From: a virus
Taxonomy: Duplodnaviria > Caudoviricetes
DNA length: 64,000 bases
IMG/VR virus record: IMGVR_UViG_3300033463_004542
Location: 34,092-98,091 of that record
Strand: one strand, 5' to 3'
A program made the position numbers and the translations under genes. Below are positions 42,216 to 53,943 of this stretch, one piece after another; within the stretch, counting starts at the first letter, position 1; each line of letters starts with the position of its first letter. The notes under the pieces were generated by a model, which was given only the letters and a program-made list of their open reading frames with translations, had not been told where the DNA came from and did not search any database.

Positions 42216-42221
42216 AAGGTT
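42216..42221 (-). promoter_or_regulatory. Putative late promoter AACCTTTAAT (sheath operon)
   Basis: Recurrent motif overlapping the upstream stop codon. Confidence 0.6.
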
Positions 42222-43218
42222 AATCTTCATTGTCGTTTTCTTCTAAATCTTTAAGAGAAGGAATTGGAGTAGAAGTTAATTCAGCCGTTGTAAGATATTC
42301 AACCGGCTCCATTACACTGATATATATTTTCTTAAGTTTTACTGTTCGTCTTGTAGCAGACTGTATTTGAGCTAAACTAAAACTATCTGAATCGTTGTAT
42401 CTACACTCAAGCCAATAGAATGTGTAGAATTTATCTGTAGCAGATACAAGATTAATCCAACCCCTACCATCTACACCAGGATTATTTGAATTATATCTGT
42501 CGTAAGAATCTTCTCTATTGATAATAACTTTGACCCACAAGTCCTTACCCATGGTTCTAGATAAGTTATAAGCAGTTATAGCATCATCCCACTTTGAAGT
42601 ATCTATATGGCCAGGGTTTTCTGTTGTTATGAAATTCTCCTCAACAGGAATACCTGTGTTTATCTTCATCAGTACATCATCCCAGTTGATACTTTTCAGT
42701 TTAGAAAATACATCATAAGTAACCTTAAGTGCTTCTATATCGTCAGTTTCTAACAAATCTGCAGATATATTTGTAGATGTCTCAACGGTGGTTACATTTT
42801 TTACTTCACCTGTTTCTTCATCTTTTTGTTCTTTTACTTGAAGATAAGAAGTAAATTTCCAATTGAAACCTCTAACTCTTCCTGAATTTATATCACGACC
42901 GCTATTACTATAGCGATACTTAGGGTCGTCATATTTAGACTTGTTAGATATATACCGTACTACGATGTAGTAGGCATATTCATCACGTCGATAATCTGAT
43001 TGTTTTACACTAATTTGTATGCCCTCAGGAAGTGCTACCATGTCTGACTCAAGAAGCGTCTTTATGTATGCTTCCATATCGCTAGAATAGTTTGATGCAG
43101 CTTCCTCATATGCTGCACGCTGTGCCCTGTGTTCAGAAAGCTGCTTGTTATAATTATCAAGATAATTCTTTCTTTCTCTTATTAATTTTTGTCTTTCAGA
43201 AGCAAATACAAATTTCAT
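42220..43218 (-). CDS. Coiled-coil hypothetical protein, paralog of 45392..46216, leader variant MKFVFAS
   Basis: Shared GKD.W., W...VS.T.KFY and KK...P...EL motifs. Confidence 0.75.
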   Translation of the reverse strand: MKFVFASERQKLIRERKNYLDNYNKQLSEHRAQRAAYEEAASNYSSDMEAYIKTLLESDMVALPEGIQISVKQSDYRRDEYAYYIVVRYISNKSKYDDPKYRYSNSGRDINSGRVRGFNWKFTSYLQVKEQKDEETGEVKNVTTVETSTNISADLLETDDIEALKVTYDVFSKLKSINWDDVLMKINTGIPVEENFITTENPGHIDTSKWDDAITAYNLSRTMGKDLWVKVIINREDSYDRYNSNNPGVDGRGWINLVSATDKFYTFYWLECRYNDSDSFSLAQIQSATRRTVKLKKIYISVMEPVEYLTTAELTSTPIPSLKDLEENDNED

Positions 43219-43219
43219 A

Positions 43220-43486
43220 TTATATTCCCTCCATATCTAATATACCTGTAACTTCATCATCAGAATAACCTAAATCGTAAAGTCTATTAGTTACATAAGT
43301 TACAAAATCATTATCTGAATCAGTTAGTGCCTTTGCTTCGTCTACTACAGAATCAAATTTTTCGTATTCCTCAGGACTGAATCTCTTAGATAAGATGGTT
43401 GCACTTGTGATAGCATCGCCTTCTTCTAAATCTTCAATTCGGCTTTCCAATGCAAAGAGGAAACTATTTATATTATTGAACTTCAT
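43220..43486 (-). CDS. Small acidic hypothetical protein
   Basis: GGAGGG RBS before MKFNN; N-terminus similar to 46213..46530. Confidence 0.65.
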   Translation of the reverse strand: MKFNNINSFLFALESRIEDLEEGDAITSATILSKRFSPEEYEKFDSVVDEAKALTDSDNDFVTYVTNRLYDLGYSDDEVTGILDMEGI

Positions 43487-45110
43487 ATGTATGACCCTCC
43501 GTAGTTTCAATATTTATATAGTCCTTGTTAACTTTGATTAAGTTAGGGCAAGTCGCTTCACTGCACTTAAGTAATTTGATATTTTCAAACTCATAAGATT
43601 CATCAGCACGATTCCAGATAATAGTAAGGTTAGGGCAATTATCAAATGCACTAAATGAAAGGTCTGTGCCATCATCTACAGTAATTGTTCCTTCTATTTC
43701 ACTATCTGCAAAAGCATAAGCACCTATCTTCATTCCACCTAAATCAAGGTCTACACCCTTCAATGAATTACAATTACGGAAAGCACCACCACCCACAATA
43801 GCAACGCTACCAAGGTCTAACTTTTCAAGTGATGAACCATTGAATGCACTTGGGCCTACCTCTGTTACATTGTTAAATTTTACTTCTTCAATAGAAGTAT
43901 CATTTAAGAATGTTTTTGTAACAATCCTCTGTAACTTCGAAGGCATTTCAACATAAGTAAGTCCGCAATCTTTGAAAGCATATGTGCCTAAGTAAACTAC
44001 TGAATCAGGAAGTTGACTTGTTAACTGAGAGCAACCCCTGAAGCAAGAATCTTCAACTACTTTTAATGAAGTACTGTGATTAATAGTGATTAAATTCTCA
44101 CAATTCTGAAATGCACTAGATTCATATTTGACAACTGAATTCGGAATATCAATAGACTCTAACCCACATCGCATGAAGAACCTATCAGGTATTACCTTTA
44201 TTCCTTCGGGAAGCTTGACTTTCTTGAGATTAGACAAGTCTCTAAGGCCCTCTTGTTCAAGTGTAGTAAGTGAATCAGGAAATATGATACTTTCAACGCT
44301 ATCTGGAAAATCCCAAGGAAATCTAACATCTTCAGGGAGTTTGATTTCTTTTGCATCTTCTACATATCCTACAATAGAATCTGCTCTATACTGAACACCA
44401 TCCTTTTCTTTAATACCAAAATATGCTTGGAAATTAGGATGCTCAGAACAGAATTTGTAGAATTGAGCTAAGCCCTTTGAACGGTCGTTTATATCGTACC
44501 AAGAATTTGATTCGAAATGAAGCTGGAATTTTTCATTTGGATTCTTAGTATTTAAGAAGATATAAAGAGGACCTCTGCGGCTATAACTTCTCCAATAATA
44601 ATCATCACCTTCATAAGCGGTGCACCAAGTAGCCTTTGTACCGCCTTCACGAGCAAGAGAAATAGAACCTGGATAAGTAAGGGGCTTCCAAACTTCCCAA
44701 TCACCATCCTCTACACAGAACTCTTTGTCGTCTGTGTTTGCATGGTGTGCTTGTTTCTTAAGCAACTTAGCCTTCTCTTTTTCAGTAAGTTCTCTGTTAC
44801 CAACAGCCTCAGTGTCAGTTAAGAACTCTTCTACTGTCTTATATTGGCCGAGGTCAGGCTTAGGATATTTCTTATAGTTATTTAAGAAGAATCCTAAGGC
44901 GTCTTTGAGGTTAGTATACTCTGATTGGTCTAAGTTGCCTTTGTTATACTGCCTAAAAATCCAAGGGCAATACTTTCCTCCGCGATTCTTTTCAAAATCA
45001 GCAGAAGGGTCAAGCTCGATAAGCTCCTGAAATTTATCATCCTCAAGTTCTGGAGCAAATTGTTCTCTAAGCTTTTCTATGGAAACTACTGCACTGATAT
45101 ATCGTTTCAT
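43473..45110 (-). CDS. Leader-tagged protein with WCTA domain and BspA-type leucine-rich repeats (LRR_5)
   Basis: MKRYISA; repeats such as AFQNCENL, AFKDCGL, AFRNCNSL, IGAYAF. Confidence 0.8.
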   Translation of the reverse strand: MKRYISAVVSIEKLREQFAPELEDDKFQELIELDPSADFEKNRGGKYCPWIFRQYNKGNLDQSEYTNLKDALGFFLNNYKKYPKPDLGQYKTVEEFLTDTEAVGNRELTEKEKAKLLKKQAHHANTDDKEFCVEDGDWEVWKPLTYPGSISLAREGGTKATWCTAYEGDDYYWRSYSRRGPLYIFLNTKNPNEKFQLHFESNSWYDINDRSKGLAQFYKFCSEHPNFQAYFGIKEKDGVQYRADSIVGYVEDAKEIKLPEDVRFPWDFPDSVESIIFPDSLTTLEQEGLRDLSNLKKVKLPEGIKVIPDRFFMRCGLESIDIPNSVVKYESSAFQNCENLITINHSTSLKVVEDSCFRGCSQLTSQLPDSVVYLGTYAFKDCGLTYVEMPSKLQRIVTKTFLNDTSIEEVKFNNVTEVGPSAFNGSSLEKLDLGSVAIVGGGAFRNCNSLKGVDLDLGGMKIGAYAFADSEIEGTITVDDGTDLSFSAFDNCPNLTIIWNRADESYEFENIKLLKCSEATCPNLIKVNKDYINIETTEGHTYEVQ

Positions 45111-53399: not shown

Positions 53400-53433
53400 A
53401 TAAAACTCCTTATTGTAAAATACAATTAGATTA

Positions 53434-53439
53434 AAGGTT
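53434..53439 (-). promoter_or_regulatory. Putative late promoter AACCTTTAAT
   Basis: Recurrent motif about 35 nt upstream of 53399. Confidence 0.6.
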
Positions 53440-53669
53440 TATGTGGTTAAATCTTTAATTATGTTATCTATACAATCAAGTGCTTTTGACTTGTTTCCAT
53501 CTTTTATGAAGTTTCTTAAAAGATAAAGACGAGCAAGAATGTAATCTTGCTTGTCTTTATTGTAGTTAATCAAATTATCAAGATTTTGATATCTGTCAGG
53601 AGTTACATTAAACACTTTAACTATAATTACTTTCGTCACCCTCCGCATAACATCTAGGGCAAAAGCCAC
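53439..53669 (-). CDS. Small hypothetical protein (start uncertain)
   Basis: ORF filling the gap. Confidence 0.4.
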   Translation of the reverse strand: MAFALDVMRRVTKVIIVKVFNVTPDRYQNLDNLINYNKDKQDYILARLYLLRNFIKDGNKSKALDCIDNIIKDLTT

Positions 53670-53943
53670 CGTCTGTTAAAGGAGTTCCACAGTTAGGACA
53701 ACGAGAGTTATCTTCTTCTATTGGAGTTAAATCCTCAATATTATCCGGTTTAGTTAACTTAAGAAAAGCAGTAGGTTTAAGTCCTAATCTCTTCTTAGCC
53801 TGAAAAAGAATATTATTTCTTGCTTGGTCAATACTAGATGCTCTAGTACTACATTCCCAATCACGAATCTTGATATTGCCAAACCTATCGGCTACACTTC
53901 CGCAATAACGATATTCACTTGTTGATTTGATATATAATTTCAT
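53617..53943 (-). CDS. Leader-tagged protein (MKLYIKST) with C-terminal zinc ribbon
   Basis: CPNCG...FCPRC. Confidence 0.75.
   Translation of the reverse strand: MKLYIKSTSEYRYCGSVADRFGNIKIRDWECSTRASSIDQARNNILFQAKKRLGLKPTAFLKLTKPDNIEDLTPIEEDNSRCPNCGTPLTDGGFCPRCYAEGDESNYS

Follow-up and report, generated by a model that had tools for sequence, protein, structure and literature searches.

What keeps one short N-terminal peptide on about a seventh of the proteins of a phage, when the proteins behind it have almost nothing else in common? The question is raised by a 64,000-nucleotide stretch of viral DNA (the window; bases 34,092-98,091 of the 98,091-bp virus record IMGVR_UViG_3300033463_004542; G+C content 36.7%), in which many open reading frames (ORFs) start with the leader M-K-x-Y-[IV] and reach a motif [IV]-x-[AS] within seven residues. 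A sequence-only reading of the window had taken this leader, or tag, for an address that directs proteins into the phage head and is cut off there. Comparison with related genomes and with the head genes of the same phage leads us to favour the interpretation, to which we assign a probability of roughly 60%, that the leader is a propeptide for capsid targeting, as in T4, and is removed by a prohead protease that prefers Ala or Ser over Glu at P1, the residue before the cut. The leader ends in the very motif that clusters in the propeptide of the capsid protein and in the scaffold, it is exchanged for a different leader with the same end in homologous proteins, and it is spread through a clade of phages. 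Coordinates below are those of the window unless marked L002, a stretch of the same genome outside the window; in comparisons the present genome is G000, and an arrow marks a candidate cut.

A seven-residue leader on unrelated proteins

Almost all genes of the 98,091-bp genome lie on the minus strand. Over the whole genome, 21 of the 146 called ORFs, about one in seven, begin M-K-x-Y-[IV], where amino-acid composition predicts 0.07; of 473 internal Met residues, not one shows the pattern. A stricter form of the core, Y-[IV]-[KRQ]-[AS]-[ASTN], is present 15 times, each time among the first 20 residues of an ORF, and not once in the other 30,796 residues. The 16 starts and five variants listed by the sequence-only reading were all recovered at their coordinates on the minus strand, and are as follows (class 1, the short leader; class 2, a longer one described below).

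59608..59904 (-): tagged ORF, 98 residues, class 1 leader M-K-x-Y-I-R-A
53617..53943 (-): tagged ORF, 108 residues, weak zinc-ribbon match; first gene of the main cluster
52083..53399 (-): tagged ORF, 438 residues, LRV repeats and three further modules with linkers
51523..51768 (-): tagged ORF, 81 residues
51032..51517 (-): tagged ORF, 161 residues
50508..50957 (-): tagged ORF, 149 residues; family tagged also at genome 13719-14153 and in the relative G003
49515..50504 (-): tagged ORF, 329 residues
49016..49282 (-): tagged ORF, 88 residues
48768..49019 (-): tagged ORF, 83 residues
48228..48536 (-): tagged ORF, 102 residues
47857..48216 (-): tagged ORF, 119 residues
47391..47843 (-): tagged ORF, 150 residues; tagged orthologue in the relative G001
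45392..46216 (-): tagged ORF, 274 residues; orthologues with other short leaders ending [IV]-x-[AS]
45133..45390 (-): tagged ORF, 85 residues, with an aberrant Tyr at P1 and Pro after it; orthologue in G001 with a V-S-A leader
43473..45110 (-): tagged ORF, 545 residues, BspA-type leucine-rich repeats
42220..43218 (-): variant leader M-K-F-V-F-A↓S; paralogue of 45392-46216
39174..39404 (-): variant leader ending Y-I-I-T-S↓S
14762..15076 (-): tagged ORF, 104 residues, within the tail/baseplate region
14320..14682 (-): long (class 2) leader, about 16 residues, ending Y-V-R-A↓S
2079..2330 (-): long (class 2) leader ending Y-V-R-A↓S
70..459 (-): head-module ORF, 129 residues, leader ending I-T-A↓S at residue 11

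The Ile/Val position of the leader is encoded by ATA, ATT, ATC, GTG or GTA and the Ser/Ala position by TCA, TCT, AGT, GCA, GCT or GCG. Nucleotide information content is at background both at wobble positions and upstream of the Shine-Dalgarno sequence, a GGAG-type ribosome-binding site that lies 5-10 nt ahead of most tagged starts. Because the wobble bases vary and the upstream DNA is unconserved beyond the ribosome-binding site, selection acts on the peptide and not on DNA or RNA, as the sequence-only reading had argued from synonymous codons. An explanation at the DNA level, such as a recombination box or an RNA element, can be ruled out, since only the Shine-Dalgarno sequence is conserved outside codons 1-7 and the wobble positions are free.

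What follows the leader differs from protein to protein, in line with the earlier observation. When the first 9 residues were removed, BLASTP found the 21 tagged proteins to be unrelated, with the exception of one pair. Almost all of them are orphans in PHROGs and Pfam, where scans returned only BspA-type leucine-rich repeats, LRV repeats, the weak zinc ribbon and two PHROGs of unknown function, and ESM Atlas look-ups of two tagged proteins yielded nothing usable. Acidity, which had been offered as a further trait of the tagged proteins, is a weak argument, as an isoelectric point below 6 is found in 81% of them versus 71% of the other proteins.

The leader is also unevenly distributed along the genome. 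It stands on 14 of the 22 ORFs in the window at 42.2-54.0 kb and on none of the 12 ORFs at 32.5-38.9 kb, the 13 tail/baseplate ORFs at 15.3-32.3 kb or the 21 ORFs at 1-13 kb of the genome; the replication, tail/baseplate and glycosyltransferase/tRNA blocks are all free of it. The absence from the genes at 32.5-38.8 kb, which the sequence-only reading calls early, and from tail and baseplate genes had been noted from the sequence and holds. In an intergenic region at L002:8154-8213 (-) (genome ~25154-25213), a 19-codon ORF, probably left over from a tagged gene that has been lost, carries a perfect class 1 leader and then ends in a stop codon.

The leader motif recurs in the capsid propeptide and the scaffold

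The head module of this phage is of the T4 type. Its capsid protein belongs to the gp23 family, its portal resembles that of T4, and a gp21-type serine protease is fused to a coiled-coil scaffold.

L002:11674-13137 (-), outside the window: major capsid protein, gp23 family (Pfam Gp23, 1e-20)
60925-62442 (-), in the window: T4-type portal (Pfam Portal_T4, 2.5e-13)
L002:13177-14640 (-), outside the window: head maturation protease-scaffold fusion, 487 residues (phrog_207, 1e-22)

The protease scores 26.0 bits against Pfam Peptidase_S77, just below the cutoff of 27 bits. An AlphaFold2 model of residues 1-200 is of moderate quality (predicted local distance difference test (pLDDT) 68.7), and its best Foldseek match in the PDB is T4 gp21 (5JBL; probability 1.0, E 3e-4, 24% identity), with herpesvirus proteases as weak later fold matches (E 0.09-0.9). 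The phrog_207 assignment and the fold match of the model to gp21 together point to membership of Peptidase S77. His69 and Ser124 are invariant across the proteases of 7 relatives and are candidate catalytic residues. The C-terminal 300 residues are coiled-coil-like, and we therefore regard the protein as a protease-scaffold fusion.

The sequence-only reading had suggested looking for the leader's terminal motif in the propeptides of the capsid and scaffold proteins, and the outcome was positive. In the capsid protein, [IV]-x-A-[ASG] occurs five times within residues 1-95, against 0.26 expected (P 7e-6). The fifth of these sites directly precedes the stretch alignable with gp23-family proteins, and the mature part contains a single site, matching chance expectation. 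Within the scaffold part of the protease the motif is found seven times, against 0.88 expected (P 4e-5). The capsid propeptides of 51 related phages have diverged in sequence and measure 57-91 residues, and each has 3-7 [IVL]-x-[AS] sites (mean 4.3); the mean for [ILV]-x-E is 0.02. In the protease, the conserved sites are one at the N-terminus, an I-A-A↓[ST] junction after the protease domain and [IV]-T-[AS]↓[ST]-T-S-V about 45 residues from the C-terminus.

The cut motif of the protease was deduced from this clustering and conservation of sites. In 60 tags, P3 is Ile or Val, P1 Ser or Ala and P1' Ser, Ala, Asn or Thr, in agreement with 206 capsid propeptide sites, where P3 is Ile or Val, P1 Ala or Ser and P1' Ser, Gly, Ala or Asn. 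The two sets differ at P4: Tyr at this position is a mark of the cargo leaders, among them 14 of 15 long ones, but occurs in none of the 206 capsid propeptide sites and only 7 of 617 scaffold sites. Because it is nearly confined to cargo leaders, this Tyr may have a part in binding and not in cleavage. The T4 site [IL]-x-E, with its cut after Glu, does not describe the sites found here, as the leaders end in Ala or Ser and the capsid propeptides are nearly devoid of [ILV]-x-E. To judge from these sequences, the P1 preference of the clade's protease has apparently switched from Glu to Ala/Ser.

The genome also has two large genes resembling zinc-finger/HNH homing endonucleases. One (L002:9265-11433 (-)) lies directly after the capsid gene, where the relatives L005 and L007 likewise have such a gene; the other (window 53940-55574 (-)) lies directly before the tagged cluster and also has methyltransferase-like matches.

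Interchangeable leaders and their candidate cargo in related phages

A megablast search with the 12-kb tagged cluster against 50,697 GenBank phages gave no match, and the nearest capsid protein of a GenBank phage, that of Bacillus phage vB_BceM-HSE3, is 30% identical. Searches of IMG/VR with the capsid protein and the protease returned 6 and then 71 related loci (protease identity 50% or more) on contigs of up to 214 kb. In one relative, L123 (JAZLCB010000369.1, 20 kb), the capsid gene is 68% identical and the contig was binned, possibly wrongly, into a Clostridia metagenome-assembled genome. This bin is the only pointer to the host; taken with the strong Shine-Dalgarno sites, it suggests that the clade infects Clostridia-like bacteria.

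When relatives were searched with a degenerate DNA version of the tag, five of them had 18, 6, 0, 11 and 6 matches and five more had 18, 5, 4, 1 and 19; nearly all of these lay on the coding strand, and the reversed control pattern gave 0-1. Across eight fully read genomes or fragments, 105 of 1,269 ORFs are tagged, and these fall into 74 BLASTP families. In G002 and G003, variant leaders have Val or Ile in place of Tyr4. The generic motif peaks sharply at ORF residues 4-6 in six genomes, and the present genome shows a second peak at residues 13-15. The latter corresponds to a longer leader (about 15 residues; 15 examples) with the consensus M-x-K-R-x-F-T-K-Y-P-S-x-Y-[IV]-[KRQ]-A↓S, and its four final residues are those of the short tag. 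In G005, the ORF L029:16872-17528 (-) has tandem leaders: a class 1 leader and, no more than about 10 residues further on, a second Y-I-K-S-S core.

The two leaders replace each other. Homologous cargo carries the short leader in one phage and, in another, the long leader or a different short one ending in [IV]-x-[AS], and the similarity between such homologues begins directly after the motif. Examples are the protein at 45392-46216 with its orthologues and the protein at 52083-53399, whose counterpart in G010 has the long leader. This exchange bears on the idea that the leader is never processed and is simply a favoured N-terminus for translation or folding, with a Lys codon at +2 and a beta-strand start, spread by recombination between gene starts. 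AAA or AAG is indeed a common second codon in this genome (43 of 146 ORFs), and one family keeps M-K-x-Y-I constant and varies at position 7. A stay-on leader of this kind nevertheless accords poorly with conservation at the peptide level, with wobble positions that are free and no conserved flanking DNA to drive recombination, and with the absence of the leader from replication, tail and glycosyltransferase genes. Nor would it be expected to alternate with a 15-residue leader that is very unlike it apart from sharing its four final residues. The leader is, moreover, predicted to be disordered and not a strand of the fold: in an AlphaFold2 model of the 329-residue protein at 49515-50504 (pLDDT 83), residues 1-9 are disordered (pLDDT <50) and a long helix starts at residue 11. 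We consider the unprocessed leader highly improbable.

The same model consists of long helices and a small C-terminal beta domain, and it has no fold match in the PDB at E 0.001 or better. The gene is one of only six of G000 that are present in the tag-rich G006 and G010 yet absent from the tag-poor G002 and G003, and a homologue is found in G001 too. Together with the proteins at 45392-46216 and 42220-43218, it is rich in helix or coiled coil and conserved across the clade, which is what would be seen if the head protease did cut the leader but most tagged proteins were accessories of the core or scaffold, degraded or expelled as the head matures instead of delivered. The T4 core proteins gp22, gp67 and gp68 are likewise substrates of gp21, and some long-leader genes lie within the head module. 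We think this unlikely for the tagged proteins as a whole, most of which are orphans that differ between close relatives (74 families among 105 proteins), as would not be expected of assembly factors. Further, they have a single N-terminal site as opposed to the multiple internal sites of the capsid propeptide and the scaffold, and the BspA-type leucine-rich repeat and LRV/HEAT domains among them resemble effector modules.

Some of the cargo may be composite. In the protein at 52083-53399, unrelated modules are joined by three copies of a linker V-E-A-C-x-x-[IV]-T-[SAC]-S at intervals of about 90-105 residues, and a G001 protein (L011:16079-17200 (-)) has three near-identical linkers between different modules; the form common to both is V-[ED]-A-C-x-x-[IV]-x-[ASC]-S. 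As each linker holds two consecutive candidate cut sites between modules, 52083-53399 resembles a cleavable polyprotein and is a candidate for such a cargo. A domain of about 120 residues in the tagged BspA-type protein at 43473-45110 (residues 104-226) resembles the long-leader head-module protein L002:15098-15628 (-), the gene for which adjoins the protease gene, and the domain is found again in a G004 protein that carries the V-E-A-C linker. The sharing of this domain suggests domain shuffling among leader-bearing proteins. As predicted for the present genome, the cargo would amount to about 15% of ORFs, mostly orphans that vary between related phages, with at least one multi-module protein containing candidate cleavable linkers.

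From timing and proposed packaging to known systems

Two promoter-like motifs recur in the genome. Class A, GAATCGTTATA (about 13 copies), precedes helicase, transcription-factor, glycosyltransferase, other non-structural and some tagged genes; class B, AACCTTTTATA-like (about 11 copies), precedes portal, protease, tail and some tagged genes. Copies in and around the tagged cluster are the following.

53963..53973 (-): class B promoter-like motif (AACCTTTAATA), 19 nt ahead of the tagged gene starting at 53943
51017..51027 (-): class A promoter-like motif (GAATCGTTATA), within the tagged cluster
42211-42221 and 55663-55673 (-): further promoter-like motif copies

At 42-56 kb, a scan for sigma-70-type promoters found 57 sites versus 60 in shuffled sequence, i.e., no enrichment, and a terminator scan found 6 terminator-like sites versus 5.8 in shuffles. 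A 10-bp G+C-rich hairpin followed by a T-run (50975-50998 (-)) is located between the class A motif at 51017-51027 and the start at 50957; as it lies downstream of the putative promoter and not upstream, it could be an attenuator or a 5' stabiliser.

Several observations weigh against capsid targeting. The sequence-only reading had assigned the tagged genes to late operons, and this holds in part: the nearest upstream motif is class B for 8 of them but class A for 13. Since the class A motif of these 13 of 21 is shared with non-structural genes, many tagged genes may not be late. Genome G003 (complete, 122 kb) has the same capsid propeptide sites and only 2 class 1 tags, and a few tags have a non-canonical P1 (Gly, Tyr or Arg). 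The tagged proteins have no recognisable anti-defence domain in PHROGs and Pfam scans, and no match to a known injected or anti-defence family in PHROGs, Pfam, ESM Atlas or fold searches. A phage of this type would load at least 20 cargo species, compared with the handful of T4. The clade has no cultured member, and phage vB_BceM-HSE3 provides no proteomic shortcut, because it lacks such a tag and its capsid N-terminus is Glu-rich.

The association with class A motifs also favours a reader outside the head, such as a peptidase of host or phage origin, a modifying enzyme or a protease adaptor that recognises the leader as a ClpXP-type N-terminal degron, with no relation to the capsid. ClpX signals can be N-termini of the type Met-basic-hydrophobic, a type into which the leader might fall. 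A reader of this sort leaves unexplained why the leader ends in the very motif of which the capsid propeptide and scaffold carry clusters in 51 phages, and a presence/absence profile for a partner enzyme found no gene common to the tag-rich G000, G006 and G010 yet missing from the tag-poor G002 and G003. We rate it as quite unlikely. Although the [IV]-x-[AS] of the leader fits the -3/-1 rule of signal peptidase, a Sec signal peptide, which would have a hydrophobic core of 10 or more residues ahead of a small-x-small site, is ruled out, as the leader has 7 residues, Lys at positions 2 and 6 and no hydrophobic core. Processing of Prp/L27-type extensions takes place after Phe-Phe and needs an N-L-Q context; this context is absent here, and we set the possibility aside as improbable.

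We thus return to the leader as a capsid-targeting propeptide. The earlier proposal of an address that is cut after [IV]-x-[AS] by the head protease gains comparative support from the clustering of the motif and from leader swapping; the cleavage itself, as well as the packaging and injection of the tagged proteins, we infer. During prohead assembly, proteins with a class 1 or a ~15-residue leader would bind the scaffolding core, possibly by docking on the protease-scaffold fusion itself as pseudo-substrates, and the capsid shell would then enclose them. Once activated, the protease would cut after Ala or Ser in [IV]-x-[AS]↓[SAGN], unlike T4 gp21 with its Glu, and remove the leader, and the mature proteins would be retained inside the head. 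If the parallel with the internal proteins and Alt of T4 extends this far, the mature cargo may enter the next host cell with the DNA. A bolder version, which we put forward as tentative and rather doubtful, is that a large uncultured clade of phages of gut- and rumen-type anaerobes (75-215 kb) combines a gp21-type protease with the assemblin specificity Y-[IV]-[KQ]-A↓S and uses this site at the N-terminus as a universal loading tag; the cargo would dock on the fusion as a pseudo-substrate and be clipped free inside the head, and 15-20% of genes, including polyproteins, would form a fast-changing injected arsenal. Features that distinguish the leader set described here, in either version, are the predicted Ala/Ser at P1, the assemblin-like tetrapeptide, two interchangeable leader classes and polyprotein linkers. 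Literature searches, which were not exhaustive and are no proof of novelty, found no description of the tag and no gp21-type protease with Ala at P1.

The closest parallel is T4, where the capsid targeting sequence (CTS) MKTYQEFIAE is the only sequence common to the internal proteins, binds the scaffolding core and is removed by gp21, which cuts at [IL]-x-E; of the CTS residues, 4 and 7 are important for targeting, whereas 8 and 10 are important for processing. Further proteins with CTS-like leaders are found in T4-related phages. Like the CTS of IPI-III and the short propeptide of Alt, the present leader is a short N-terminal sequence on otherwise unrelated proteins, which in T4 are non-essential. 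In both systems it ends in a gp21-type protease cut motif, a predicted one in the present case, that recurs in the capsid propeptide and the core, and the module includes a gp23-type capsid protein and a T4-type portal. The sequence-only reading had called the tag analogous to that of T4 but different; the analogy stands, and the difference is smaller than was thought, because both begin M-K-x-Y, with Tyr4 being a targeting residue in T4. Leaders span 10-19 residues in T4 and form two classes of about 7 and about 15 residues in the present clade. The present system departs from T4 in having Ala/Ser rather than Glu at the predicted P1, a tag of 7 rather than 10 residues, about 20-25 tagged genes per genome rather than a handful, mostly acidic or neutral rather than basic cargo and a protease fused to the scaffold.

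In phiKZ, 201phi2-1 and SPN3US, many internal head proteins are cut at a short motif by a gp21-related protease, to which the processing inferred here would correspond, and N-termini are conserved between diverged paralogues. Enzymes of the phiKZ type cut at [SAG]-x-E; in these three phages the propeptides mostly exceed 100 residues, with [SAG]-x-E or A-x-E as cut sites and a small number of substrates (8 in SPN3US). The leaders of the present clade are, by contrast, short, uniform and numerous and have Ala or Ser at P1.

Likeness of another kind is seen with the herpesvirus assemblins, which have a fold in common with gp21. Pseudorabies virus assemblin cuts at YLQA↓T (release site) and VQA↓S (maturational site), and the mature protease of human cytomegalovirus ends in YVKA. 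The core of the phage leader, Y-[IV]-[KRQ]-A↓S, belongs to the same tetrapeptide class as the assemblin release site Y-[VL]-[KQ]-A↓, and the generic phage site [IV]-x-A↓S matches the maturational site [VL]-x-A↓S. In herpesviruses, too, the protease is N-terminal to a fused scaffold, with one site at the junction and another near the C-terminal tail. The phage enzyme is nevertheless nearer in fold to gp21 (E 3e-4) than to the assemblins (E 0.09 or higher), and the herpesvirus motif releases the protease and scaffold without tagging any cargo. As the fold matches to assemblins are weak, we take the likeness to be one of function and not of membership, and it may be convergent.

If the leader is indeed a capsid-targeting propeptide, the "target then clip" packaging of T4 would extend to a large uncultured clade, with about 20-25 proteins per genome, and the tagged proteins would form a catalogue of candidate injected effectors, with about 74 families from eight genomes. 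A gp21-family protease with Ala/Ser at P1 would bear on the evolution of specificity in the protease lineage shared by phages and herpesviruses, and the 7-residue tag would offer a compact means of bringing foreign proteins into the capsids of phages of Gram-positive anaerobes. Should the tag prove unrelated to the capsid, it would still mark a system directed at the N-termini of about 15% of the phage proteome.

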